Shown here piece by piece: positions 17,710-39,746 of a stretch of DNA of 64,000 nt. This DNA comes from Deltaproteobacteria bacterium (GTDB taxonomy: Bacteria; Desulfobacterota; Binatia; Binatales; Binataceae). How positions within the stretch are numbered: position 1 is the stretch's first letter; the number at the start of each line of letters is the position of its first letter. The notes beneath the pieces were generated by a model. The model made no database searches. It was not told where the DNA came from and saw nothing but the letters and a program-made list of their open reading frames with translations. The position numbers were made by a program, and so were the translations under genes. Location of the stretch: assembly GCA_027317185.1 (NCBI GenBank), contig DAHVFB010000001.1, forward strand, positions 35,954-99,953, given 5' to 3'.

Positions 17710-18375
17710 CTACATTGCCCCGGCAGCCCAAACTACACGGCCGGCGATCTTCACCAGCCCGGCGGAAACCGTGACCGCAGAATAGGCAGGGTTGTCACTG
17801 CGAATCCCCAGCGCCGTCCCACCGCGCTCACGCTGCACGCGCTTTACCACCAAATCGCTGCCGTCGAGCAACACGTACAAGCCGTCAACCACGGCCCGAG
17901 TCTGCCGCAAATCGGCCAGCACCAGGTCGCCCTCCGCCAGCGTCGGCGTCATCGAATCGCCAATCACGTCAAGCAACATCAAGCACTTGGGATCGATCGC
18001 CAACCGGCCTCGCAGCCAGTGGGATCGAAAGGCGAGCACGTCGGTAATCTGCGAACTGCGCAGGCGCGATCGGCCACGTGAGCCGGTTCGAACTTCGCTG
18101 CTCGATAAAAATGTAAAATCGTCGTAAGCGGCTCCTTGCGATCCAAGGTTATTGACCAGTTCCCGGCCGGTTGCGAGCCACTCGACCGACACTCCGGCGG
18201 CGCGCGCAAGCGCCACCAGGCTCGCGAGATTCGGTTGCCCTCGTCCCGCGATCCATTTGTAGACCGCGTTATCGGACACCCCGATCGTTCGCGCCAGTTC
18301 GGCCACGCCCACAAACTGCCGCACGATCGTTTTCAGCCGATCACTAAACAGTCCCTCTTCTACTATGGTTGACAT
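17710..18375 (-). CDS. Phage CI/LexA-like repressor (HTH_XRE plus S24 peptidase)
   Basis: 221 aa. N-terminal HTH (LARTIGVSDNAVYKWIAGRGQP). C-terminal S24 with Ser (GDSMTPTL) and Lys (VVKRV) dyad. Confidence 0.75.
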   Translation of the reverse strand: MSTIVEEGLFSDRLKTIVRQFVGVAELARTIGVSDNAVYKWIAGRGQPNLASLVALARAAGVSVEWLATGRELVNNLGSQGAAYDDFTFLSSSEVRTGSRGRSRLRSSQITDVLAFRSHWLRGRLAIDPKCLMLLDVIGDSMTPTLAEGDLVLADLRQTRAVVDGLYVLLDGSDLVVKRVQRERGGTALGIRSDNPAYSAVTVSAGLVKIAGRVVWAAGAM

Positions 18376-18400
18376 ATTGTTATCAAAATCTTGACAAGCT

Positions 18401-18429
18401 GTCGGTCTTTGTGAGATATGAACAGGTCC
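18401..18429 (+). promoter_or_regulatory. Candidate sigma70 early promoter divergent from the repressor gene (TTGACA-17-GAGATAT)
   Basis: ttgacaagctgtcggtctttgtgagatat, 26 bp beyond the repressor start. Tandem second TTGACA at 18370. Confidence 0.25.
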
Positions 18430-19157
18430 TATGGTGAAGGGGAGCCGCCTGTTTGTCTGATTATACGATCCCGGTTTCCCGCGACTCAGAGCTTGCGCAT
18501 CCCACCGTTATACATGGGTCCACTTTGATTCCATGGACTTCAGACCGGCTGTTACTTTTCGCAATCACGCATATTGGCGCTGCCAGATCGACCTTAAACT
18601 GCTTCGATCACCAGGCTCCCGTCGTACAGCAAGTCACATGCCGCTGCCAATCGAATGACCGTGCACGCACTCAAAAGATCGCCCCGGCGCTGCCAGACCT
18701 GGACTTTCGCGCAAAGCTCACATTCACCGCCGGGCATCGCGGGACAAACCCTTCCTGTGGGGACTTAGCACACTACTGTAGGATATTTGCATCATTCAAC
18801 GCGGGGAGAAACGCGCGCGATCCCAGCGCCCCATCCCGCGATGGAGCAGCTACGATGTAATGGCGCGCACGTCCCGCTGATTTGCCGCCAACCACCGATC
18901 CAAGGAGGGGGCTTCATGGATCACGTTCGAGTACACGCCGGGCGCTTTATACAGCGCCTGCTTCTTTCCAATTCCGAACCACTTGCGGCAGGCATACTTC
19001 GCCCGCCCTGAGCGGTGGCCGATTAAGCGGAACCTGCAAATTTGTTCCATTCCCGCTGAAGTTTCAGCGGCATTCGAAAACCAGAACCGGCCTGTAAGAC
19101 GGTTCCTCATCCCGCGGTTCGAGCCATCGGCGTCATGCCTGGCTTGGACGCGGCCTC

Positions 19158-19505
19158 ATGGTGAATGCAATGTCGATGTTGATGGAAATCGTGGATACGA
19201 TCGGCGACGACGCAGCCTTGAAACTGATCGCCGATTTTGCCGGCACGCGTCTTTATGTACCGCAAGAGCCAAATCCCGAGGATCCGATCTCCCGCTCGAT
19301 CGGCCTGCCGGCGGCGCAAAAGCTGGCCCGCCTGTACGGCGGTGATCGCATGGACGTCCCCAATCCTGCGGTGCGCCGCATGCGGATTTTGCAAATGCGT
19401 GCGGCCGGGGCCACCGTGGAATCGATCGCGCGGGAACTCCGATGCACCGCGCGGCGTGTTTACCAGGTGCTGGCCGAAGCCCGCACCGTCAGTCCCTCGC
19501 TCTGA
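19158..19505 (+). CDS. Mor/C-family phage transcriptional activator
   Basis: 115 aa. Central GTRLYVP motif and C-terminal HTH (ATVESIARELRCTARRVYQVL), as in the Mu Mor/C family. Confidence 0.5.
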   Translation: MVNAMSMLMEIVDTIGDDAALKLIADFAGTRLYVPQEPNPEDPISRSIGLPAAQKLARLYGGDRMDVPNPAVRRMRILQMRAAGATVESIARELRCTARRVYQVLAEARTVSPSL

Positions 19506-19838
19506 TTCCCGGCATATCGCCGGTCTCGCGCTGCCCTCCAAGGGCGGCACCCAATCCGTTTATACTTTGTTCTTGTTATCGCTTGACGCGCAACTACGTG
19601 TTTTGAACGGACGAGGACCCTCATCGCATCACTACATTTTGCTACTCACCACACACTATATTTTCTACTCGCTTGAGGCGCGAGGGCGACATACTAAGCC
19701 GCTAGCACTGCCGTAGCGGAAGCGTTTCAGGTCCAATTTTACCGAGATAGCAAGTAGCACACCACTGACTACTCGGTTTGTAATTATTTCCTTTCTGAAT
19801 GATGCCTGCACACTAGCCACTTATTTCAAAATGCCTAT

Positions 19839-19858
19839 TCAGTGAAAAATTTCAGTCT
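19839..19858 (+). promoter_or_regulatory. Candidate late-promoter/activator site TCAGTGAAAAATTTCAGTCT upstream of the lysis genes
   Basis: Near-identical 20-mer recurs at 33801-33820 upstream of the head gene gpI (19 of 20 positions). Built from direct TCAGTG/TCAGTC half-sites. Confidence 0.35.
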
Positions 19859-19925
19859 GTTCGCTTCGCCAAACTGTCTCTACTCTGCGCGAGTGACCTG
19901 TCCTGAAACATCAATTGATTCAACC

Positions 19926-20450
19926 ATGAACACAGATTTGTTTCGTAATGCGCCATCATCTGGCTACCCACAGGCATTTGCGGTCGCTCTCGCCCGCGTA
20001 TTTGCCGACGAGGGCGGTTATAGCGATCAGCGTAACGATCCGGGTGGCGCCACCAAATATGGAATTTCGCAGCATCAGTATCCGACGCTCGACATTGCGA
20101 AGCTGACGCGAGACGAAGCCGCAACAATTTACTACCGCGACTGGTGGCAGCGTTTCGACTTCGGTTCGTTGCCCGATACTGTCGGCGGCAAACTGTTTAA
20201 TTTGGCAATTAATATCGGTCCGCGCGAGGCGTCGCTGTGCTTGCAGCGCGCGTTGCGGGCCTGCGGCCATCGGGTGGCCGAAGATGGCGCACTTGGTGAT
20301 CAATCCCGCGCCGCGGCGCAATCCGCCGATCCAGCAGCGCTCGCTGCGGCGCTGCGCTCGGAAGCTGCGGGCCATTATCGAGTGCTGGCCGTCTCGGATG
20401 CTCGCCGCAAAGTGTTTCTCGAGGGCTGGCTTAATCGCGCTTACGAATAA
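19926..20450 (+). CDS. Endolysin, glycoside hydrolase family 108 (N-acetylmuramidase)
   Basis: EGGYSDQRNDPGGATKYGI signature of GH108. The track ORF starts at 19842. ATG 19926 is preferred because the promoter motif overlaps 19842. Confidence 0.75.
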   Translation: MNTDLFRNAPSSGYPQAFAVALARVFADEGGYSDQRNDPGGATKYGISQHQYPTLDIAKLTRDEAATIYYRDWWQRFDFGSLPDTVGGKLFNLAINIGPREASLCLQRALRACGHRVAEDGALGDQSRAAAQSADPAALAAALRSEAAGHYRVLAVSDARRKVFLEGWLNRAYE

Positions 20451-26240: not shown

Positions 26241-27602
26241 CTAGATCGGCGGAACCGGCAGCGGATAGAACGTCACCCCTGCGCCGTTGGAACAACTGAA
26301 GGTGGTGCTGGTGCCTGCGCAGTTACCAGCCGGAAGCGCTGTACTTATACCGCCCGCGTTGCTCTTCAATTTGGAAAGGTCGACTCGCACGAGAAAACCA
26401 AAATCAGTCGCCAAGCCGAAGGTGCCCTTGCCACAAGCCTGAATGGCGGTCGAGTTAGGCTCAAACCTGGTAGACCATATGTTGCCGTTGGGGTCATTTG
26501 GCAGGTTGGCGGAAACCGAAGAAACATCGCTGCTTTGGATCTGAGCGACTTTGGTGTTCGGTAGTTGCATTAAACCAATGCCCGGCTCGTACTCCTCGGT
26601 TATGAAAGCCTGGTGCGATTTCCTGTCCACCGCCGCGCTCAAATCAGCGTTATTACTGTCGATCACGACCGGAATCGAGTTGGGCGGCGTTCCCGCTTCA
26701 GTGACCGTACACGACGATCCGGGATTCACCGTAGCGCCATTGAGATTCAGAACGATGATGGTTGAATCGCCTCCGATGTCGTCGGCGGCCAGCCAGACTC
26801 CGGTGGAAGGATCGACCGCCGCAGAATCCCAACCCGTGGAATTAGAGCCAGCAGCGAGGTTCGCGTCGGTAAGCAAGCAGCTTTCACTGCCGGTGACGTC
26901 GATCATCTCCATCGAGTCAGCCGTGGACGGCGGGTTGTCGTTGGCATTCAGGATCAGATTGGTGGTCGGATCGAATGCGAAATTGTCGCTCTGCGAACCG
27001 GTCTGAGAGGCAACGATCGGACCGAAAGTATTGGTGGTTAGATCGAAAGCTGTAAAGCCGGTGCAGGCGCCGGCCGACGCGCACCCGCTGCCATCGGTAG
27101 TGGCAACCAAAACCTGTTTATGCTTCGGATCGGCAACGATGCCACCGTTTGCCGCGTCCGCGCCCGTCGGAAAGGGAAACGGCGAGCCGGCAATCGGGTT
27201 ACCGGTGCTGTCGAAAATATCGAGGAATCCGTTATTCCCGTTCTGTCCGCTGGAGACCAATAAATGCCGACTGCGCGGGTCGAACGCCACCGCGATCGCA
27301 TAATCCGGATGTCCGATATCGAGCGTGGCGACGTGCGGCGACGCGGTATCTGGATTAACTCCCAGATTGAGCACCTCGACCTGACCATCGCCACTCGTGC
27401 CCAGAAAGTCCAAGGCCACGAAGGCGTAGTTCTTTTTGCAATCCACCGTGGTAAGTGCAGCGGTAGTGGATGCGTTACCGCCAGTTACCTTGGGCGTGAA
27501 CCTGTTATTCGAACTCGAATCACACCCCCCCATCGTGAGTACAAATATTAAGCTGGTAAACGCGAGCGCGCTTACCATAGTTGTCTTGAAATTCGGACGC
27601 AT
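26241..27602 (-). CDS. Secreted lipoprotein, beta-propeller-like repeat protein (cargo)
   Basis: 453 aa. Signal plus lipobox (LTMGGC). Repeated strand-like segments. Confidence 0.45.
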   Translation of the reverse strand: MRPNFKTTMVSALAFTSLIFVLTMGGCDSSSNNRFTPKVTGGNASTTAALTTVDCKKNYAFVALDFLGTSGDGQVEVLNLGVNPDTASPHVATLDIGHPDYAIAVAFDPRSRHLLVSSGQNGNNGFLDIFDSTGNPIAGSPFPFPTGADAANGGIVADPKHKQVLVATTDGSGCASAGACTGFTAFDLTTNTFGPIVASQTGSQSDNFAFDPTTNLILNANDNPPSTADSMEMIDVTGSESCLLTDANLAAGSNSTGWDSAAVDPSTGVWLAADDIGGDSTIIVLNLNGATVNPGSSCTVTEAGTPPNSIPVVIDSNNADLSAAVDRKSHQAFITEEYEPGIGLMQLPNTKVAQIQSSDVSSVSANLPNDPNGNIWSTRFEPNSTAIQACGKGTFGLATDFGFLVRVDLSKLKSNAGGISTALPAGNCAGTSTTFSCSNGAGVTFYPLPVPPI

Positions 27603-27766
27603 TGTTTCCCCTCCCTGAAGATAGATAAAGTCCTATTAACCGACTAAAGGATAGATTATCTGTAGCAAAGGCTGAAAATGAAGTCTACGCGTCTAAGCTA
27701 ATTATCCGCGAAAATTACGTCAAATAGGCGTGCGAAGCCCACTGCGGCAAAAGGTTTGATCGGGTA

Positions 27767-27859
27767 GGTCAGGGCAAGATGGGCGCGGTATGGCCGAAGC
27801 GCGCGTTGGTCATCGAAGAAATCAGGCTGAAACTATTGAAACCGGAACTGTAAAGCTCC
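27767..27859 (-). pseudogene. 3'-terminal fragment (last 29 codons plus stop) of a Kelch-repeat gene paralogous to 29144..30412
   Basis: About 95% nucleotide identity to 29141-29233. Reading frame preserved (ELYSSGFNSFSLISSMTNARFGHTAPILP*). No upstream ORF body. Confidence 0.5.
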
Positions 27860-27987
27860 ATCCGGCGGCCCTCAAACGCATGGCGTCGCGGTATGGCGCA
27901 AGCTCACACCTCGCCCCGGAGGGCTAAGGCGCCGGAGCTGCGCGTCTTCTCAGGCGCCGCTTAACGCCGGGACGGCAATCGGCAGCG

Positions 27988-28974
27988 CTACGGGGCGCGG
28001 TTGTTCACGTTGGTGCAGGGCCCTGCGCTGGTATCCTCAGCCAAATTAGCGCCCGAATTGTGCAGCGCCTTCACCAGCACGGCGTTGCCTGGACATATGA
28101 GCGAGACGCCGTCAGTGTGGTTGCCGGTGGCGGAGGTGGCGGTTATCAGGCCGTTTTCGTCCAACTCAACCCCGTTGTTTCCGTTCTTAGTGAATTTGCC
28201 GTTGGTGACGAGGTTGTCCTGGTTTGATTGGTTTGACGACGATGCGTAGACACCGTCGCCGACGTTGCCGGTCGCAGAGCAGCTGACGATCGAGTTGCAG
28301 CAGCCGGTCGCGTCGATGCCGTCGCCGCCATTGCCGGTGGCCTTGCTATTGGTCACGGTGCTACAACAACCACCCGCCACGATTCCGACGTCGCCGTTGT
28401 TGGTGGCTGTGGTATTGACGATCGTGAAGCAGCACCCGTTTGCATCGATGCCCCTACGCTGGTTGTTAATCGCTATCACATTGGCAAGGGTGCTGCAGCA
28501 CGCGACCTCGAGACCGTCGCCATCCCCGCTGCTCAACGACGTTACGGCCCCGGACAGCTTCACATGGTCGATGGTGGCGCTGTTCGTGGCTTTAAGCGCG
28601 AGATCTACGTTGAAGCCGGTGACGGTGCCGTTAAGAATCGCTATTTCGCTCAGGGTGTTGCCCCCGTCCGTGATGCCGAACATGCTGGTGCTGGAACTGG
28701 CGTTGCCGCTGATCGTGTGTCCACCCAGGTCGATCGACACGTTGTTGGCCGTAATCGTGATGCAGGTGGCCCCTGAGGCGGCCAGGTTCCCGGCCAATTT
28801 GTAGTTGCCCGCGCTGTTGATGGTCGTCCCGCAGGCGGATATCGGAGTAGACGCCGAAGGCGCGGCGGCGCTCGGGGGCGAGTCTAATAATCCCAGACCG
28901 AGCAACGCCGCAAACAGCACTAGCGCAACAAGTTTAACCACCCCGGCTCCCCGCTTTTGTGTTGATCGCGCCAT
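27988..28974 (-). CDS. Secreted right-handed parallel beta-helix repeat protein with paired-Cys (GCC) repeats (cargo)
   Basis: 328 aa. Signal peptide. Tandem ~22-aa repeats ATGNGGDGIDATGCCNSIV / NNGDVGIVAGGCCSTVT. Confidence 0.55.
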   Translation of the reverse strand: MARSTQKRGAGVVKLVALVLFAALLGLGLLDSPPSAAAPSASTPISACGTTINSAGNYKLAGNLAASGATCITITANNVSIDLGGHTISGNASSSTSMFGITDGGNTLSEIAILNGTVTGFNVDLALKATNSATIDHVKLSGAVTSLSSGDGDGLEVACCSTLANVIAINNQRRGIDANGCCFTIVNTTATNNGDVGIVAGGCCSTVTNSKATGNGGDGIDATGCCNSIVSCSATGNVGDGVYASSSNQSNQDNLVTNGKFTKNGNNGVELDENGLITATSATGNHTDGVSLICPGNAVLVKALHNSGANLAEDTSAGPCTNVNNRAP

Positions 28975-29143
28975 AAGATATCCCCCCTACTGCCCGCCAA
29001 GACGATATAAATCGAAACAGTTAGCTAAGCCCGGCGTCGGTTGTAGCAGAGCAGATAAGCTAAAGTACAGCGATCAAGGCAAAATTGAGCTGAAAGCGGG
29101 TCACGTATAGAGCGATCTTCAGGCAGGCGTGTTAAGGCAGGGG

Positions 29144-30412
29144 TCAGGGCAGGATGGTCGCGGTATGGCCGAAGCGCGCGTTGTTCATCGAAGAAATCAG
29201 GCTGAAACTGTTGAAACCGGAACTGTAAATCTCCGCCGTATTGACCGCGCTGGCGGCGTTCAAGCCGTTCAGGCCGTCCTGGCCACCGGTAATCAGCGCC
29301 ATCCCGGCCAGCGGACCGCTGCTGAACGCGGTCGCGGTGTGATAGCGCCGGAAATCCGTCATATTGCCGGTCGGCCCGAAGGCTCCGCCCGGATTGTAGA
29401 GTTCCGCGGTATAGGTCAGCGTGTTGCCGCTGGTCAGCCCGCCGCATAGCAGCACCAGACCGTTTTGCAGGATCGCGGAAGCGAACTGCATGCGGCTGAT
29501 GGTCATCAGGCCCGCCGCGGCGAACGAATTGGAGGCGGGATTGTACAACTCGGCGGTCGAGGTGATCACGCCCGCGTTATCCTGGCCACCAGCCAGCATC
29601 ACCTGCCCATTGAGCACGCCTCCGGAGAAAAAGATCGCGTTGTCGAAGAAGCGGCTGTCTTGCATCAGGTTTGTGATGTTCGTGAATTTCTGGGTGGTGG
29701 GATTATAGAGTTCGGCCTCGTTCTGCACGGCGGTCATCGCGGAGTTCGCGAAACCGCCCGCGATCAGCACCTGGCCGTTGGTGAGCAGCGTCGCGGTATG
29801 TGCCGCGCGCGGGAAATGCATCGGCGCGGGAGTGGCGGTGAATTTATCGGTAGCTGGATCGTACAATTCTGCACTGGCCAACGGATTTCCGTTCGCATCG
29901 ATGCCGCCGGTGATCAAAACCATCCCGTTATTGAGCAAGGTGGCAGTATGCAGCGCGCGAACGGAGGTCATGCTGGCGGCGATCGGATGGAACAACTGAT
30001 TTTTTTCGTTGAACAACTCCGCCGATTTCAGCGTAGTCCCGTTGCCGTCCTGCCCACCGGTAACCAGAATGGCGCCGCTGTGCAGGATGGTCGCGGTATG
30101 AAACGCGCGCGCCGCGTTGAGCGAATTAGTGGTGGTAAAGGTCTGGGTGGTTGGATTGAAGAGTTCGGCCTGCGCAACCGCCGCGCTGCTGGCATTGATA
30201 CCGCCGACGATGAGGACATCGCCTGAGAGCGGACCCGGAGTGGCAGTGCCGCTCGAGGTCGGCGTACCGCTGCTGCTACTGGTCACCTCGACCGCGCCGA
30301 AGCCGGGACCGCAGCCCTGCCCCACCATCGCCAGCCAGCCGAAGGTCACCAGCGCCGCGGCCGCCAACAGGATATTTCGTATCGTCGCTAGTAATCCGGC
30401 CGTGCGCTTCAT
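29144..30412 (-). CDS. Kelch-repeat lipoprotein (cargo)
   Basis: Start at MKRTAGLL (GGAGGGGG SD) with lipobox GQGCG. Five or more Kelch motifs (FHTATLL..G.VLITGG). The track N-extension is rejected. Confidence 0.7.
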   Translation of the reverse strand: MKRTAGLLATIRNILLAAAALVTFGWLAMVGQGCGPGFGAVEVTSSSSGTPTSSGTATPGPLSGDVLIVGGINASSAAVAQAELFNPTTQTFTTTNSLNAARAFHTATILHSGAILVTGGQDGNGTTLKSAELFNEKNQLFHPIAASMTSVRALHTATLLNNGMVLITGGIDANGNPLASAELYDPATDKFTATPAPMHFPRAAHTATLLTNGQVLIAGGFANSAMTAVQNEAELYNPTTQKFTNITNLMQDSRFFDNAIFFSGGVLNGQVMLAGGQDNAGVITSTAELYNPASNSFAAAGLMTISRMQFASAILQNGLVLLCGGLTSGNTLTYTAELYNPGGAFGPTGNMTDFRRYHTATAFSSGPLAGMALITGGQDGLNGLNAASAVNTAEIYSSGFNSFSLISSMNNARFGHTATILP

Positions 30413-30613
30413 GCCCCCTCCAATCTGCAAGCTCTCCACGAAGGCTACGGCTATAACATAGCCCAAAGGCCCACGAAACGAGTTGCAAAATAGTGAATTA
30501 TTCTGCGCTTTGAAAATGCAGTCGCCGGCGCGCCCCATCCTGCTCGTGCTGCTCGTGGCATACCGGCCCGGACTGCGGTAATTTGGAATCGCAGGTACGG
30601 GGATGGCAGTCAT

Positions 30614-31243
30614 ATGAGAGCTACATCGAATTCTTCGCCAGCGCGGATTGCGGCGCCCTGCAGCACGGAGCGAAAATCGATCGCGCTGACTTGGCCGATC
30701 GTCACGCTAGTGCTGACCGCGTTCCTGCCGCTGAGCGGATGCCTGGGAGCCTCGGGACTCGGCGGACTCGGAGGAATGAGCGGCCTCGGCGGCATGAATC
30801 CGTTCGGCGCCACCACCGCCACCCCGCAGGAACGTGCGATGAACGTCGAGCCGATGCTGACGGCGGCGGGTTTCCAAACACTCGCGCCGCAGAAGACAGA
30901 GCATCAGCAGCAGCTCGCCGCGCTGCCGGCGCTCACGATGAACACCTATACCACCGCGGAGGGTCAGCAGCGCTATTGGTATGCCGACCCCAGTTATTGC
31001 CATTGCATGTATGTCGGCGACGCCGGCGCTTATCAGCGCTATGAAACCCTGAAGTTGCAAAATCAGCAGCTCCAAAACGAGCAGCAGGCGCAACAGCAGC
31101 AGATGCAGATGCAACAGATGCAAATGCAGCAGATGCAGATGCAGCAAATGCAGATGATGGGACCGTTCGGATCGCCGATGGGCGGCTACGGCAGTCCGTT
31201 CGGCTTCGGCATGGGCGGCCCTGGCATGGGCTTCATGTTTTAA
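30614..31243 (+). CDS. Lipoprotein with C-terminal Gln/Met tandem repeat (cargo)
   Basis: Lipobox LSGC. QMQMQQMQMQQMQMQQMQMM encoded by a 9-nt tandem repeat at 31100-31158. Gly/Met-rich tail. Confidence 0.5.
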   Translation: MRATSNSSPARIAAPCSTERKSIALTWPIVTLVLTAFLPLSGCLGASGLGGLGGMSGLGGMNPFGATTATPQERAMNVEPMLTAAGFQTLAPQKTEHQQQLAALPALTMNTYTTAEGQQRYWYADPSYCHCMYVGDAGAYQRYETLKLQNQQLQNEQQAQQQQMQMQQMQMQQMQMQQMQMMGPFGSPMGGYGSPFGFGMGGPGMGFMF

Positions 31244-31353
31244 GTTTTCCTCGACCGCGATCGATTCAATCCAGACCGGGAATTGCCTGCTTCGCCTTTA
31301 TCCGCAAACACAATTTGCGCACCGCTGGTTGAGGCGGCGTTCCGCCTGCTAGT

Positions 31354-32172
31354 TTGCTGGCGATGAATTTCGCCGCGTTCCTTGCCGCCTGCCATGCGCA
31401 ATGGCCCGAGTTCGACGATCCGCGATCACTGTCCAAATCTTTGAAGCCGACCGACCGGCGCCTGGCCGATCTGCCGAAAAAGATTGAAGGGATGGCGACC
31501 GAGAACAAGCTGATGCTGCTCAATCTCGCAGTCGCGCAGCTTGGACCCGGCGAGGTTTACGTCGAGGTGGGATGCTACAAGGGCCTAAGCCTGGTTTCGG
31601 CGGCCGCGGGCAACGATCGCGCGTCGATTTATGCCTGCGATAATTTCTCGCAATTTCAATCCACCGCCGACCAACTGCGCCGCACGATTGCGTCGCATAC
31701 GCGGCCGGAGCAGGTGCATTTCTTCGATATGGAGTTTCGCGAGTTCCTGCGGATCGCGCCGTGGCGGCCGGCCCGTATCGGAGTTTATTTCTACGATGGC
31801 GGGCACTCGTTCGCCGATCAGTACGAGGGGCTTAAATATGCGCTGGGCGATCTCGCCGACGATGCATTAGTGATCGTGGATGACACCAACAAGCGCAACG
31901 TTCGTTCCGCGAATCATCTGTTCGCCGCCCTCGTTCCGGGTTTCGAGCCAATTCTCGACCTGCGCACGCCGCGCAACCATTCGCCGACCTGGTGGAACGG
32001 AGTCCAGGTATACCGCTATCGGCGGCCGGCCACGATTGCGGCGCTTGCCGGCGATCCGCTTGGCTATCGAATCCGGAAATTTCTGTGGGATGATGTTTTT
32101 CTGCGCTCGCGCCACGCCTACCGCGCGCGCCGCAGCGACCTGAAATTCTATCTGCGCCGCAAGTTCAAGTAG
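31354..32172 (+). CDS. Class I SAM-dependent methyltransferase (TylF/MycF-like, cargo)
   Basis: VYVEVGCYKG SAM motif, FYDGGHS, IVDDTN. Confidence 0.55.
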   Translation: MLAMNFAAFLAACHAQWPEFDDPRSLSKSLKPTDRRLADLPKKIEGMATENKLMLLNLAVAQLGPGEVYVEVGCYKGLSLVSAAAGNDRASIYACDNFSQFQSTADQLRRTIASHTRPEQVHFFDMEFREFLRIAPWRPARIGVYFYDGGHSFADQYEGLKYALGDLADDALVIVDDTNKRNVRSANHLFAALVPGFEPILDLRTPRNHSPTWWNGVQVYRYRRPATIAALAGDPLGYRIRKFLWDDVFLRSRHAYRARRSDLKFYLRRKFK

Positions 32173-32265
32173 GCAATGAGAGAGGGTGGCCCGGATCGTA
32201 AAGGACCTGTCGGAATTCGACCGCGTATAGAGATGGCAGTACGCGCGGCGTGCGACCCAGGTAAG

Positions 32266-33510
32266 ATGAAAATGGCAGCCAAAACGCTTTTCACCAACGC
32301 TAACCTGGTTCTGGACGGATTCACGGAACTCCAAAAATCGTTCGACGTGCTGGTCCACGATAACCGCATAATTGCGGTGTCGCAAACGCCGCTGGCTCAT
32401 GAAGATGCAAAAGTGATCGATATTCGCGGCAGGACGCTGATGCCGGGTCTTATCGATGCGCATGCGCATATAACGGGACTGTCGCTGAGCCCGAAAAACA
32501 TCGCCTACCCGGCCTCCGAAATTGCCATCGCCGCCGCCAATTATCTGCGCTGCAGCCTGATGGACGGTTTCACCTCGATCAGAGAAGCGGGCGGCGCCGA
32601 CCACGGCGTCGCCCGCCTGCTGGCCGAAGGGAAAATCATTGGGCCACGAATGTTCTACTCGGGGCGCGCGCTAACGCAGACCGGCGGAGGCGCAGACTTT
32701 CGCTCTCCCGATGAGGTCCTGGATCCGTGTGGTCACACCGGTCCGTTTACGGTGATGTCCGTGATCGCCGATGGAATTGACGAGGTGCGCAAGGCCGCGC
32801 GTGAAGAACTGCGCCGGGGCGCGGCGCAAATAAAAGTATTCGTCTCCGGTGGAGTGGTGTTTCCATCGGAAGCTCATCCAACTATTTACGAATACTCATT
32901 GGAAGAATTGCGCGCGATTGTGGAAGAGGCGAACGGCCGCGGCACCTACGTCATGGCCCACGTCTATACCGATGAGGGAGTTCGCCGGTGTTTAACCGCC
33001 GGCGTCCGATCTATCGAACATGCCAATTTCGTCAGCGAAGAAACGGTCGCCATGATGGCCCGGCACGGAGTCTACCTCGATCCGACCTTCATATCGCTCG
33101 TGCAACGAATCGAGTCAGCGGCCGAAACCGGGCTGCCAAACAATATCGTTGACAATTTGAAGACGACGGTGGCGAGGGGCCAGCAAGTCTACCGCTGGGC
33201 GAAGCGCTACCAGGTGCCAATCGCTTTCGGGACCGACCTATGGGGTCCAGAGGCGCAAACGTCGCAGCTCAGAGAATTTGAAATGCGAATGGAGCTCGAC
33301 GATGCGCCCGGTATCATTGCTTCAGCCACCCGCATCAATGCCGGGTTGCTAATGCAGAACGGCAACCTGGGAACCATTTCTCCCGGAGCCTACGCCGACC
33401 TCTTGGTCGTCGAAGGAGACCCCTTGAGCGACCTGAGGGTCATGACCGATCCTCAGAAGAATCTTAAGCTGATCATGAAGGACGGCGTAATCTACAAGAA
33501 CGAGATCTGA
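32266..33510 (+). CDS. Amidohydrolase-family metal-dependent hydrolase (cargo)
   Basis: GLIDAHAHI metal-binding motif, TIM-barrel amidohydrolase layout. Start at ATG 32266 (MKMAAK). Confidence 0.7.
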   Translation: MKMAAKTLFTNANLVLDGFTELQKSFDVLVHDNRIIAVSQTPLAHEDAKVIDIRGRTLMPGLIDAHAHITGLSLSPKNIAYPASEIAIAAANYLRCSLMDGFTSIREAGGADHGVARLLAEGKIIGPRMFYSGRALTQTGGGADFRSPDEVLDPCGHTGPFTVMSVIADGIDEVRKAAREELRRGAAQIKVFVSGGVVFPSEAHPTIYEYSLEELRAIVEEANGRGTYVMAHVYTDEGVRRCLTAGVRSIEHANFVSEETVAMMARHGVYLDPTFISLVQRIESAAETGLPNNIVDNLKTTVARGQQVYRWAKRYQVPIAFGTDLWGPEAQTSQLREFEMRMELDDAPGIIASATRINAGLLMQNGNLGTISPGAYADLLVVEGDPLSDLRVMTDPQKNLKLIMKDGVIYKNEI

Positions 33511-33800
33511 GGTACATAGCGGCGATCGCGAGGGCCGCTGTAATCATCGAGATCGGATAGCTCGCGCTGGCTGAACTTGGCTATCCGAGAAAATAGCAAC
33601 TTTTCCCGTTTATCGGTCGCCGAAAAGCAATTCGGTCTGTCTCTTCCACCAGCCGCACACGCAAGTCGCCTTAGAATTCCTTCTCCCGCTTAATTCCGAG
33701 GGAAGGTACGGAAGGGGCTTCCTGCGGGAGCGTCGAATCGCTCACGCCAAGCATTGTTCAGACCATTTCAATATTTCGCACATGGCAACTGACACTATAG

Positions 33801-33820
33801 TCAGTGAAATATTTCAGTCT
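33801..33820 (+). promoter_or_regulatory. Second copy of the candidate late-promoter motif TCAGTGAAATATTTCAGTCT, upstream of gpI
   Basis: Matches 19839-19858 at 19 of 20 positions. Preceded by the inverted repeat ACTGAC-N6-GTCAGT. Confidence 0.35.
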
Positions 33821-33948
33821 TATTGCGTCCGCTGGCAAAGCGCAGAATGCGCGAGTCTTAAGGATCACCGCATCATACCAACCGATTCCACCAACCCAGG
33901 CTATTAGCCACTGACCTTTAGTCATTCACAAGGACTCCTATTCAATCA

Positions 33949-35061
33949 ATGACTAGTCAAGCAACCAACTCCAGAACGCCGGGCGCGGCCCCCCCCCACC
34001 GCGACGCCTGGCGCACGCGGGCCCGCGGTCAACTTCCGGTGATCTCCTCTGCCACCGGTTCGTGGTCCATGCCAACTCCCGAAGTTCCCCCATCGTGGGT
34101 CGAACTCCTCCCGATCGGCGAGTTTGCGGGACGCGATGGCCGCGGGCCATTCCGCGTAAACGACCCCGCGGCGGTGATTGCCGCGACTCGGGCCTTGCGG
34201 ATGGAGGCCGGTCTTCCGATCGATTACGACCACGCCACCGACCTCGCCGCGCCCACTGGCGGACCAGCCCCGGCCGCCGGATGGATTCGAGAACTCGAGG
34301 TCCGCGCGGGATCGATTTGGGGGCAGGTCGAATGGACTCCGAACGGCGCACAGGCGATCCGGGCGCATCAGTATCGTTATCTGTCGCCGGTATTTCAGTT
34401 TTCGCGCAGCGGCGAAGTGATGCGGCTGCTGCGAGCGGGATTGACTAATAATCCGAATCTTTACCTGACCGCGATCTGCGCGGCCAACAAAAAGGAACTC
34501 GACATGGAAATGCTGATTGATCAGTTGCGTGAAATCCTAGGTCTCGACGACAACGTTGATGCCGCCCAGATACTCGAGGCGGTCCGAAATCTGGCTGCCG
34601 CACCCAACCTCCCTGAGGATGCAGCGCCCCTCAACGAGGGCGCTGGCGACGATGACGATGATGCCGAAAGCCCCGATCCGGCCCGCTTCGTGGCAATGTC
34701 GCACTTTCAGCGCGCGGTCACCGAACTGAACCATCTGCGCGCCGAGCGTGGACAAGAACGCGCCGAGCTAACCGTTGACGACGCGATTCGAGCCGGCAAA
34801 CTGGTGCCGGCGCAGCGCGCCTGGGCCGTTTCATATTGCCAGGCGGATTTCGGCGGCTTCAAGGAATTCATCGCACGTCAGCCCGCGATGCTTCCGGCCG
34901 CGCAGCACTTTGCTTCCGCTTCGGCGCCGCGCGCGAAGTCTGAAAGCCTGACGCCGGGCGAGCTCGCGATCTGCACTCAACTTGGCCTGCGTCCCGAAAC
35001 CTTTATCCAGCGCCGAGCAGCTCGCGGCCAGTTGCTGAAACTCAACAAGTTTTTCGATTAG
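33949..35061 (+). CDS. Mu gpI-like prohead protease/scaffold protein
   Basis: ELLPIGEFAGRDGRGPF...PIDYDHATDL...PAPAAGWIRELEVR...YRYLSPVF matches the FluMu/Mu I protein family. Acidic linker plus C-terminal scaffold-like region. True start may be internal (about 34069). Confidence 0.65.
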   Translation: MTSQATNSRTPGAAPPHRDAWRTRARGQLPVISSATGSWSMPTPEVPPSWVELLPIGEFAGRDGRGPFRVNDPAAVIAATRALRMEAGLPIDYDHATDLAAPTGGPAPAAGWIRELEVRAGSIWGQVEWTPNGAQAIRAHQYRYLSPVFQFSRSGEVMRLLRAGLTNNPNLYLTAICAANKKELDMEMLIDQLREILGLDDNVDAAQILEAVRNLAAAPNLPEDAAPLNEGAGDDDDDAESPDPARFVAMSHFQRAVTELNHLRAERGQERAELTVDDAIRAGKLVPAQRAWAVSYCQADFGGFKEFIARQPAMLPAAQHFASASAPRAKSESLTPGELAICTQLGLRPETFIQRRAARGQLLKLNKFFD

Positions 35062-35221: not shown

Positions 35222-35917
35222 ATGGCGGCTTTGACCAGCGCTCGCAATACTCCCGAAATGGCCGATTTTGGCCGCATCCAGGTTTACCCTGTTGAAGCCA
35301 ACACGGTCGTTTATCTCGGCTCGATGGTGGCGCTTAATGGCGCCGGCAACGCCGTGCCCGCCAGTTCGACCCCGGGATTGAAGATTGTGGGGCGCGCCGA
35401 ACGCGTCCACAACGGCATCCCGGGCCAGAACGCCGTCAACACCGGCGGCGTGGCCGGTGGGATATCGATCGTATGCCGCCGCGGCGTTTTCATGTACGCG
35501 GTCAATGACAGCTCGATCGCGCAGGCACAGATCGGATCGCCCGCCTTCGCGGTCGATGACAACTCGGTTTCGGCCAGCGACGGTAGCGCCAGTTCGGTGG
35601 TCGCGGCCACCGCGTTCACCTTTCCAGTCGCCGGGACGCCTCAACTGATCGTCCTGAATCATGAGTACGTCTCCAAGGTGGTCGTCACCAGCGATCCGGC
35701 CGGCACCACTTACGTCGAGGGCACTGACTATGTAGTCGATTACCAGTCGGGTCTGGTGATGCGCACGGCCGCCAGCGCGATCGCGGCCGGCGCCCAGGTG
35801 CTGATCTCGTTTGACTGGGGCGCGCCGTCGCGCAGCATCGCGGGACAGATTGTCAATCTCGATCCGAGCGGCGAAGTGTGGATCGACTTCTGGCATCAGT
35901 CCACGCTCGCGATCTGA
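35222..35917 (+). CDS. Head decoration-like protein (DUF2190-like N-terminus) with a C-terminal shared phage surface domain
   Basis: Between gpI and gpT. The C-terminal about 65 aa (VVVTSDPAGTTYVEGTDYVVDYQSGLV...VLISFDWG) is shared with the sheath and the gp37-like protein. Confidence 0.4.
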   Translation: MAALTSARNTPEMADFGRIQVYPVEANTVVYLGSMVALNGAGNAVPASSTPGLKIVGRAERVHNGIPGQNAVNTGGVAGGISIVCRRGVFMYAVNDSSIAQAQIGSPAFAVDDNSVSASDGSASSVVAATAFTFPVAGTPQLIVLNHEYVSKVVVTSDPAGTTYVEGTDYVVDYQSGLVMRTAASAIAAGAQVLISFDWGAPSRSIAGQIVNLDPSGEVWIDFWHQSTLAI

Positions 35918-38243: not shown

Positions 38244-39746
38244 ATGCCAGCGAGCTTTATGCACGGAGTCGAAGTAACGGAGGTCAACAGCGGCCCGCGG
38301 CCGGTAACCGTCGTCAAATCGGCGGTAATCGGGCTGGTCGGCACCGCCCCGATCTGGAGCATCAGCAATGCCCCCGCGGTCAACACGCCGGTATTGGTAA
38401 GCTCGGCGCCCGACGCGGCGCAATTCGGTCCTTTGATCAAGGGCTATTCCATTCCATATGCCCTGGCCGCTATTCAGTCCCAGGGCGCGGGCCAGGCGAT
38501 CGTCATCAATGTGTTCGATCCCACCATTCACACCAGCGCGATAGCCGCGACGCCGTTCACCTTCAGCACTACCGGCACCAGCGCCGGCACCATCAAGCTT
38601 GGCCACATGGGCGTGTCGCAGGTGGTGGTGACCAGCGATCCGGCGGGCACCACTTATACGCTGGCGAGCGACTACACGCTCGACGCGGTCAATGGCATCG
38701 TCACTTTGGTCGCGGGCGGAAGGATCGCCGCGGGCGCAACGGTACTGGTGTCGTTCGACTATGCCGATCCGACCAAGGTCAGCGATGCCAACGTAATTGG
38801 CGCCTTCGCCAGCGGCGCATATAGCGGTTTGCAGGCGCTGAAGATTACTTACGGCACGATGGGCTTCTTCGCGAGAATTTTGATCGCGCCGGGCTTTTCT
38901 CAGAATCCCGACGTCGCCAGCGCGCTTACCTCGATGGCGGACACGCTGCGCGCGATGGCGCTGGTGGACAGCGCGCCGGGCACCTCCGCCGCGACCGCGA
39001 TCGCCAACCGGAATGTCACCGGCAATGCGTTCGACACCAGCTCGAACCGTGCGATCCTGTGCTACCCACAGGAATTGTTTGTCGACAACGGTATCGATCC
39101 GACCACCGGACTGACGGTCAATGCCAATTCGATCGCGCCGCTGTCGCAGTATGTGGCGGGTGCGATGGCAGCCAAAGACCTAGCTAAGGGTTATTGGTGG
39201 TCGCCGTCCAACACCCAGTTCCAGGGCGCGCTCGGACCCGACGTGCCGCTTTATGCTTCAATCATCGATCCCGCCTCCGACGTCAACAATCTCAACGCCG
39301 AAGGTATTCTTACTGTGTTCAACAGCTTCGGCACCGGCTTGCGGGTATGGGGTAATCGATCGGCCGCCTATCCGACGAGCACCGCACCCGACAACTTCAT
39401 CAGCGTGCGCCGTACGATGGACGTGATCGAGGACTCGGTCGAATTGGCGATGCTGCAGTTCATCGATCAGCCAATATCGAACGCCCTGATCGCGTCGATT
39501 CTGGCGAGCGTCAATGGATTTATCCGAACCTTGATTCAGCGCGGCGCGTTGGTCGGTGGCAGCGCCAGTTACAATCCGGCGGAAAATCCTGCAGCTCAGC
39601 TTTCGGCCGGACAACTCGTATTTGATATCGACGTGATGCCGCCGCCGCCGGCCGAGCGCATCAGCTTCAACGTCACGATCGATACCACCCTGTTGCAGCA
39701 GCTCGGCCAGAGCAACGCCCTGAGCACCGGGACAATCCCGGCCTGA
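38244..39746 (+). CDS. Contractile tail sheath protein (Mu gpL-like) with inserted surface domain
   Basis: MPASFMHGVEVTEV...VIGLVGTAP matches the Mu L N-terminus (YHHGVQVLEIN..IVGMVCTA). C-terminal GLRVWGNRS sheath core. Start ATG 38244 (AGGAG SD). Confidence 0.85.
   Translation: MPASFMHGVEVTEVNSGPRPVTVVKSAVIGLVGTAPIWSISNAPAVNTPVLVSSAPDAAQFGPLIKGYSIPYALAAIQSQGAGQAIVINVFDPTIHTSAIAATPFTFSTTGTSAGTIKLGHMGVSQVVVTSDPAGTTYTLASDYTLDAVNGIVTLVAGGRIAAGATVLVSFDYADPTKVSDANVIGAFASGAYSGLQALKITYGTMGFFARILIAPGFSQNPDVASALTSMADTLRAMALVDSAPGTSAATAIANRNVTGNAFDTSSNRAILCYPQELFVDNGIDPTTGLTVNANSIAPLSQYVAGAMAAKDLAKGYWWSPSNTQFQGALGPDVPLYASIIDPASDVNNLNAEGILTVFNSFGTGLRVWGNRSAAYPTSTAPDNFISVRRTMDVIEDSVELAMLQFIDQPISNALIASILASVNGFIRTLIQRGALVGGSASYNPAENPAAQLSAGQLVFDIDVMPPPPAERISFNVTIDTTLLQQLGQSNALSTGTIPA

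Follow-up and report, generated by a model that had tools for sequence, protein, structure and literature searches.

Within a 64-kb stretch of DNA from an uncultivated soil bacterium of the Binataceae, hereafter called the window, a 20-bp sequence occurs twice in a block of phage Mu-like genes, once ahead of the lysis genes and once ahead of the head genes, which raises the question of what these two copies do. A first-pass annotation of the same DNA had proposed that they are late promoters dependent on an activator of the Mor/C family. As argued below, the two copies probably are the core of two Mor/C-type activator-dependent late promoters, P_lys and P_I, of a Mu-derived element. The promoter type proposed originally is well supported, computationally, by the position of the copies, the lack of a -35 element, a -10-like hexamer at the predicted distance, a phylogenetic footprint and co-variation of site and protein, whereas the direct-repeat half-site structure that came with it had to be given up.

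Two motif copies in a Mu-like block

Host genes, including those for RNase G, SelD and SelB, reach up to ~17 kb of the window and resume after ~49.3 kb. The left part of the block between them consists of two minus-strand genes, for a 180-aa protein and for a repressor, then a 780-bp spacer, a Mor-like gene and P_lys. Then follow the endolysin gene, small genes, and the genes for gp27, the large terminase and a Mu portal. P_I precedes gpI, and the genes after it encode an Ig-domain virion protein, the capsid protein gpT, an adaptor, the sheath, and baseplate and fibre proteins up to ~49.3 kb. Between the portal gene and P_I, 7.3 kb (26241-33510) are taken up by non-phage genes. Those on the minus strand encode proteins of 453 and 328 aa, both of unknown function, and a protein with Kelch repeats; those on the plus strand encode a 209-aa protein without assigned function, followed by a methyltransferase and an amidohydrolase. 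Some related elements are compact, and their portal gene leads straight into P_I and gpI. Others are split, with 6 to more than 10 kb intervening, and have the methyltransferase and 209-aa genes on the opposite strand. The larger features of the block are as follows.

17007-49280: Mu-like block.
17710-18375, minus strand: CI/LexA-type repressor gene (HTH_3 and Peptidase_S24), divergent from mor and presumed to stand at the top of the cascade.
19158-19505, plus strand: gene for a Mor/C-family HTH protein, the proposed activator and the sole family member in the element.
19542-19561, plus strand: terminator-like hairpin 3' of the mor-like gene, isolating P_lys.
19893-20450, plus strand: endolysin ORF (GH108 and PG_binding_3), with the ATG at 19926 as an alternative start.
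33619-33636, plus strand: terminator-like hairpin upstream of P_I.
33949-35061, plus strand: gpI, Mu-like prophage protease/scaffold (Mu-like_Pro), first gene of the head-tail operon.

Repeats of other kinds are also present in the block. Of a 93-nt direct repeat (95% identical; 27767-27859 and 29142-29234), the first copy falls between the ORFs for the 453-aa and the 328-aa protein, and the second takes in the 3' end of the Kelch gene; the repeat looks like what is left of a partial duplication. The gene for a 231-aa virion protein (35668-35712) and the tail sheath gene (38612-38656) share a 45-nt repeat (87% identical). Since both of these proteins match the Ig-like family phrog_807, proteins of the head and of the tail carry the same decorating domain.

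The two 20-mers lie on the plus strand at the coordinates given by the first-pass annotation and match, as it had reported, at 19 of 20 positions; the sole mismatch, A against T, falls at the centre of a dyad. Their positions relative to the genes were likewise verified, with copy 1 ending 68 bp before the endolysin ATG (19926) and copy 2 ending 128 bp before the gpI ATG (33949). Both occupy gene-free spacers (19506-19925 for copy 1 and 33511-33948 for copy 2), and the 1-kb bins that hold them have the lowest GC content of the region (0.555 and 0.545, with ~0.60 in the rest), in agreement with the ORF-free, AT-richer setting described earlier. The motif search that the annotation had suggested returned only these two matches in the whole 64 kb when up to three mismatches were allowed, and none is expected from 100 dinucleotide-preserving shuffles. 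Similarly, the exact dyad TGAAANNTTTCA was present at the two copies only in a search of the window. The component parts can be listed in order.

19839-19858, plus strand: 20-mer copy 1 (P_lys), TCAGTGAAAAATTTCAGTCT, spanning the dyad core plus the initial 4 bases of the downstream block.
19843-19854, plus strand: dyad core of P_lys, TGAAAAATTTCA, with 5-bp inverted half-sites TGAAA and TTTCA and 2 bp between them.
19855-19861, plus strand: GTCTGTT, the local form of a conserved CCCTTAT block, directly 3' of the dyad and overlapping the -35 region.
19881-19886, plus strand: -10-like hexamer TACTCT of P_lys, identical in three related loci (L001, L004 and L088).
19886-19894, plus strand: TGCGCGAGT block, copy 1, comprising the last base of the -10 hexamer, a GC-rich discriminator and the predicted transcription start.
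33801-33820, plus strand: 20-mer copy 2 (P_I), TCAGTGAAATATTTCAGTCT.
33805-33816, plus strand: dyad core of P_I, TGAAATATTTCA, a perfect 12-bp palindrome.
33817-33823, plus strand: GTCTTAT, a variant of the CCCTTAT block.
33843-33848, plus strand: -10-like hexamer CAGAAT of P_I.
33848-33856, plus strand: TGCGCGAGT block, copy 2, with discriminator and predicted start.

The likeness of the copies extends past the 20-mer. After a 27-bp stretch that is not conserved, both carry TGCGCGAGT at offset +47, and the -10-like hexamers stand just 5' of this block at offset +42. A -10 element had been predicted 20-25 bp downstream of each copy, and an xAxxxT hexamer does start 23 bp past each 20-mer. As -10 elements, the hexamers of these promoters (TACTCT, CAGAAT and CACAAT) are weak, and a consensus scan of either spacer found no sigma-70 -35/-10 pair. 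From the hexamer alone, transcription is predicted to start at ~19893 for P_lys and ~33855 for P_I. The dyad core at 19843-19854 is the proposed activator-binding site, and its centre would lie ~32.5 bp upstream of the -10 hexamer, at about -44.5. Between the mor terminator and P_lys there are a further ~270 bp of non-coding DNA (19562-19838), of which short blocks are kept in L001 and L004, such as CTTGTTATCG at 19572-19581.

Conservation of the architecture and its start codons

Related loci were gathered in three sets: the contexts of Mor homologues; gpI relatives from species-representative genomes, of which 80 loci were kept out of at least 112 relatives; and 80 metagenome loci anchored on Mor. 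The loci of the second set are nearly all labeled as Binataceae or deltaproteobacterial MAGs, and their gpI and gpT proteins are ~50% and ~83% identical to those of the window. Across ~160 related Binataceae loci, the same series of parts is found, namely the dyad TGAAA-N2-TTTCA, CCCTTAT, 19 nt, an xAxxxT hexamer and a start codon 7-8 nt on. The 7-bp block reads CCCTTAT in the relatives and GTCT(G/T)(T/A)T in the genome of the window.

These comparisons also settle how the site is built. The first-pass annotation had described a direct repeat of TCAGTG and TCAGTC half-sites about 13 bp apart, and this arrangement proved to be specific to the window genome, as the orthologous sites read ctcccTGAAATATTTCAgcc or gggTGAAATATTTCAccc. 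The orthologous spacers between mor and lys retain CTGAAATATTTCAG and TTTACTCTGCG and do not retain the flanking TCAGT repeats. As a candidate half-site structure, TCAGTN8TCAGT was rejected: it was absent from all six of six loci and unconserved in orthologous sites, where the inverted repeat TGAAA-N2-TTTCA is found instead.

Upstream of gpI, nearly all loci share one common layout, with sites of three classes. Class 1 consists of TGAAA-N2-TTTCA, cCCTTAT, 19 nt, (C/T)ACA(A/C)T, 8 nt and ATG. Sites of class 2 carry TGAACTAGTTCA and tCCTTAT, with the downstream layout of class 1, and those of class 3 read aGTTCAggg(C/A)TGAACtGTTCA, gCCTTAT, 19 nt, CACAAT, 8 nt and ATG. The CAGAAT hexamer of P_I is used at three class-1 gpI sites, including that of the window, and at one class-3 site. 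Upstream of lys, the class-1 layout ends with TA(A/C)(T/C)TT, 7 nt and GTG.

The spacing within this layout is almost invariant. All but one of 90 unique sites, or 89, contain an xAxxxT hexamer, which in 87 stands exactly 38 bp past the first base of the core, and in 83 of the 90 an in-frame, open start codon follows the hexamer within 5-10 nt. The hexamer offset equals that of the window at 15 of 16 lys sites (the 16th has it 1 bp further) and at 72 of 74 gpI sites. The dyad core is near maximum information content in the 16 unique sites upstream of lys, and the information profile as a whole shows four conserved blocks (half-sites, CCCTTAT, hexamer and start codon) with unconstrained sequence between them. 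Within the dyad, conservation peaks at the inner A/T of TGAAA/TTTCA, and the outer G/C are variable.

The gap between hexamer and start codon is too short for a Shine-Dalgarno sequence, and thus the genes would have to be transcribed from there as leaderless mRNAs or with a leader of 1-2 nt. This forced start at the hexamer provides independent evidence that the conserved architecture is a promoter. It also suggests that the late mRNAs of most relatives are leaderless or nearly so. In the window, an in-frame GTG at 19893, 6 nt past TACTCT, is a candidate leaderless start of the endolysin gene. The gpI gene of the window has lost the proximal start codon and would have a leader of ~95 nt, compared with a start 8 nt past the -10 element in most relatives. 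A run of nine C residues (33989-33997) inside the 5' end of gpI (..AAPPH..) was also seen, and it is possibly a tract prone to slippage or assembly error.

The full architecture is confined to two positions. Searched as a regular expression in 87 sources (~1.5 Mb), it matched solely at two places, ahead of the first lysis gene and ahead of gpI, and the minus-strand matches are the same palindromes read in reverse; no match was found in the host DNA flanking the loci in these ~1.5 Mb. In IMG/VR, the exact 20-mer had no matches and the 18-mer TGAAANNTTTCACCCTTA had 38. Nine of the latter loci (10 sites) are in Binataceae-type elements, and all of these are P_lys or P_I sites followed by the complete downstream architecture. 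The remaining 29 lie in unrelated AT-rich contigs that lack it, which by our own estimate is about the number expected by chance for 16 specified bases. A third or fourth site, equivalent to the Mu promoters PP, ahead of the baseplate/tail genes, or Pmom, ahead of mom, was found neither in the window nor in the ~10 kb of tail genes 3' of gpI in most gpI-anchored loci. A gap at 42.8-43.1 kb of the window contains a small ORF and no motif site, and no mom-like gene was seen.

One subgroup departs from the usual arrangement. In the loci whose Mor-like protein carries the helix sequence CTERYVYKVL (L141, L146, L148, L150, L152, L153, L156, L157 and L165), the stop codon of mor and the start codon of lys overlap (..GTGA..), a separate P_lys is absent, and the activator site is kept at P_I only. 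Because of this overlap and the missing P_lys, mor is the first gene of the lysis and packaging operon in this subgroup.

The candidate activator and competing explanations

If the dyad is an activator site, then the protein most likely to bind it is encoded nearby. The Mor-family assignment made in the first-pass annotation withstood a profile search, in which the protein scored 29.9 bits with Pfam Mor (PF08765; cutoff 24.9) over residues 44-110, and its homologues carry a precomputed PF08765 match. Alignment with Mu Mor (hhalign E=4.4e-5, probability 69%) spans the GGxxxxxP beta-linker and the HTH, and alignment with Mu C is weaker (E=7e-4, probability 26%). Fold searches with an AF2 model (pLDDT 82.8) returned generic HTH folds only. 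Membership in the Mor/C family is thus moderately supported.

A link between protein and site is seen when the recognition helix is compared with the half-sites. Proteins with helices of the form CT(R/S/A/V)RRV(F/Y)QVL always adjoin TGAAA-N2-TTTCA promoters. The helix CTERYVYKVL belongs to split elements whose gpI promoter has TGAAC/GTTCA half-sites, GGCTGAAC-N-GTTCAGCC; this connection was made via identical sequence, since L156 equals L030 at 100% over 3.6 kb. For genomes with class-2 sites (TGAACTAGTTCA), no overlapping contigs were found to link them to a Mor type. The helix type therefore co-varies with the half-site (TGAAA versus TGAAC), which is the signature expected of a protein and its site, and the co-variation rests on about two clades, that is, one or two independent events. 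It points to the Mor-like protein as the likely ligand of the dyad and favors the Mor/C-dependent reading.

The only serious rival is that the dyad, in a true promoter, is bound by a host factor such as a dimer of the CRP/FNR family, so that the late genes would answer a host physiological signal. Class II CRP sites are centered at -41.5, and the CRP half-sites are TGTGA and TCACA. The promoters described here resemble class II CRP/FNR promoters in having a palindrome for a dimeric HTH protein over the -35 region and a poor -35 element, and many class-1 sites read GTGAAATATTTCAC, or GTGA-N6-TCAC, with outer bases that agree with four of five bases of each CRP half-site. The moderate support for the family membership of the Mor-like protein also lends this reading some weight. 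However, in a CRP site the inner A/T bases, which are the most conserved here, would belong to the spacer, where the sequence is unconstrained, whereas the outer G/C bases vary, and the distance from the site to the -10 element exceeds that of a class II site by 3 bp. Furthermore, the half-site changes along with the Mor helix type, and the architecture is restricted to the phage-derived element and occurs nowhere in the host DNA flanking the loci. A host factor is therefore an unlikely occupant of the dyad.

Less probable still is an operator role, in which the CI/LexA-type repressor (17710-18375) would bind the dyad and thereby directly shut down the two late operons. A dimeric HTH repressor is always encoded beside the system, adjoining mor in all related loci, and palindromic operators are typical of such proteins. 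The place where an autoregulatory operator would be expected is the 780-bp spacer between repressor and mor (18376-19157), which holds no called gene; but the dyad TGAAA-N2-TTTCA is absent from it, and it carries a different palindrome, CTACnGTAG (CTACTGTAG, 18773-18781), which is kept in relatives beside a TTGACA. In addition, a position near -44 in a promoter that has no -35 element is that of an activator, and without an activator, these promoters leave nothing to repress. CTACnGTAG is itself a possible repressor operator.

Other observations concern the same region. A strong Shine-Dalgarno sequence with an ATG (GGAGGGGGCTTCATG, ATG at 18916) opens a 31-codon ORF in the spacer, and relatives keep its start and not its sequence; the product is possibly a small Cro/Ner-like protein or a leader peptide. 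In eight loci (L006, L091, L092, L097, L102, L104, L128 and L136), the repressor-mor pair occurs with no phage structural genes after it, and in L006 it is followed by genes for a sigma-54 activator and a response regulator. Such pairs could be remnants, or the regulator pair could have been reused elsewhere.

Two readings deny that the copies are promoters. That they are recombination, packaging or insertion-boundary sites flanking the 14-kb segment at 19.8-33.8 kb is suggested by their being direct repeats with ~7.3 kb of non-phage genes between them (26241-33510). This idea is highly improbable and largely refuted because compact relatives, which lack the insertion, carry the sites at the same gene-relative positions; moreover, the conservation reaches to a -10 element and a start codon at fixed offsets, and no recombinase or transposase was found. 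Finally, the AT-rich composition of the motif is all that would suggest a chance similarity or a structured RNA, and the likelihood is negligible given that shuffles yield no expected matches, that folding energies are no better than those of shuffled sequences (z = -0.04 and -0.12), that the start codons come only after the conserved blocks, and that neither an Rfam family nor a tRNA was found.

The promoter reading can be put together as follows. Loss of the divergent CI/LexA-type repressor would lead to expression of the single Mor-family protein, which would bind the dyad as a dimer or tetramer centered near -44 and recruit sigma-70 RNA polymerase to a promoter that has no -35 element. The parts of such a promoter would be the dyad TGAAA-N2-TTTCA, the 7-bp block in the place of the -35 element, a 19-bp spacer, the weak xAxxxT hexamer and a GC-rich discriminator. 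Transcription would begin ~7 nt past the hexamer, which in most relatives is at the start codon or no more than 2 nt from it. P_lys would then drive the genes for endolysin, the small lysis proteins, gp27, the large terminase and the portal, and P_I those for the protease/scaffold gpI, the decoration protein, capsid protein gpT, sheath, tube, baseplate and fibres.

A probable Mu-type promoter design in a transposase-less element

There are close parallels for this arrangement in phage Mu. The four late promoters of Mu have -10 hexamers and lack -35 elements; the 16-bp imperfect dyad bound by C, centered at -43.5, overlaps the -35 region, and critical bases lie immediately 3' of it (PMC2582627). 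For C and Mor alike, the dyad is centered at -43.5, 31.5 bp before the -10 element, in promoters without -35 hexamers (PMC2582627, PMC4390567), and a 2025 preprint describes tetrameric binding for Mu Mor and C. In the annotated Mu genome, the order is C, terminator, Plys, lys ... G, terminator, PI, I.

Like Plys and PI of Mu, the two promoters of the window stand after the activator gene and before the endolysin gene, and directly before gene I. The gene order seen in Mu is also found in ~100 related loci. In both systems a terminator (here, a terminator-like hairpin) precedes each promoter, a -10 element occurs without a -35 element, and the dyad overlaps or abuts the -35 region. CCCTTAT fills the place of the critical bases downstream of the Mu dyad. 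The distance from dyad centre to -10 element is 32.5 bp here compared with 31.5 bp in Mu, a comparison conditional on the predicted transcription start; the dyad centre would be further upstream than that of Mu by 1 bp, or, with transcription starting at the ATG, by as much as 3 bp. The two 5-bp inverted repeats TGAAA and TTTCA recall those of Pm, the Mor-activated middle promoter of Mu, and the Mor-like protein likewise aligns better to Mor than to C.

Differences are also evident. The dyad sequence is unrelated to that of Mu, and the element has two promoters compared with four, with no equivalents of PP and Pmom found. The lys and I genes of Mu have leaders with annotated ribosome-binding sites, whereas the start codons of the relatives examined here lie 7-8 nt past the -10 element. 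In the Mu cascade, Mor activates C, which in turn activates the late promoters; here, one family member stands at the place of C and apparently serves the late promoters directly. Given a Mu-like architecture combined with a differing sequence, activator count, promoter count and starts, the sites are classed as Mor/C-type late promoters. The design is already known from phage Mu, and here it is kept across ~80 species in an element that has no transposase.

The last point was pursued by comparing the window with L001-L166 and L206-L212. MuA and MuB were not found by tblastn in the window or in L001-L166 (167 sources), even when genes of the closest viral relative were included as queries, and neither an integrase nor the F and G head genes were present in the Mu-like block of the window or of any genome or metagenome locus examined. 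In the true Mu-like viral contigs that carry Mor homologues (27-46% identity), MuA and MuB are upstream of mor, and F and G lie between the portal gene and I. To the left of the repressor in the element are host metabolism genes.

A gpI relative is present in at least 112 species genomes, and gpT and the sheath gene are intact in ~95% of the species loci. With dN/dS values of 0.10 for gpT and 0.145 for the sheath, at near-saturated synonymous divergence, the capsid and sheath genes are under purifying selection across ~70 species. Flanking genes are common to close subclades only, and beyond these no conserved chromosomal neighborhood was found among the loci. In the closest subclade, a lasso-peptide-like cluster (asparagine synthase, PqqD, a transglutaminase-core protein and methyltransferases) flanks the element upstream of the repressor (L001, L004, L006, L088 and L092); it is absent from the window.

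These features bring to mind gene transfer agents such as RcGTA, which the element resembles in having genes for head, tail and lysis but none for replication, transposition or integration, and in combining structural genes under selection in many species, sometimes split by host-like genes, with a dedicated regulator. It differs in being Mu-derived with a contractile tail. A literature search found no link between Binatota and a Mu-like element or gene transfer agent. We tentatively suggest, as a possibility short of an even chance, that an S24-type repressor, one Mor-like activator and two leaderless or near-leaderless operons form a minimal circuit in a selected, transposase-less Binataceae element that is domesticated or gene-transfer-agent-like and is not a prophage.

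The analysis provides a testable regulatory map, with an activator site, a -10 element, predicted starts and a likely activator, for a phage-derived element in a phylum that has no cultured model. It extends the promoter design of Mu Mor and C to a distant lineage, where the DNA specificity is different, and the natural variants, TGAAA and TGAAC half-sites with their differing helices, could be used to dissect DNA recognition by Mor/C proteins. Leaderless late mRNAs, as suggested by the conserved spacing between -10 element and start codon, would be unusual for Mu-like systems. The promoter signature can also serve as a sharp marker to find and delimit these elements in metagenomes. If the minimal circuit is as suggested, the phylum Binatota would possess a particle system not described before, either gene-transfer-agent-like or domesticated in some other way.
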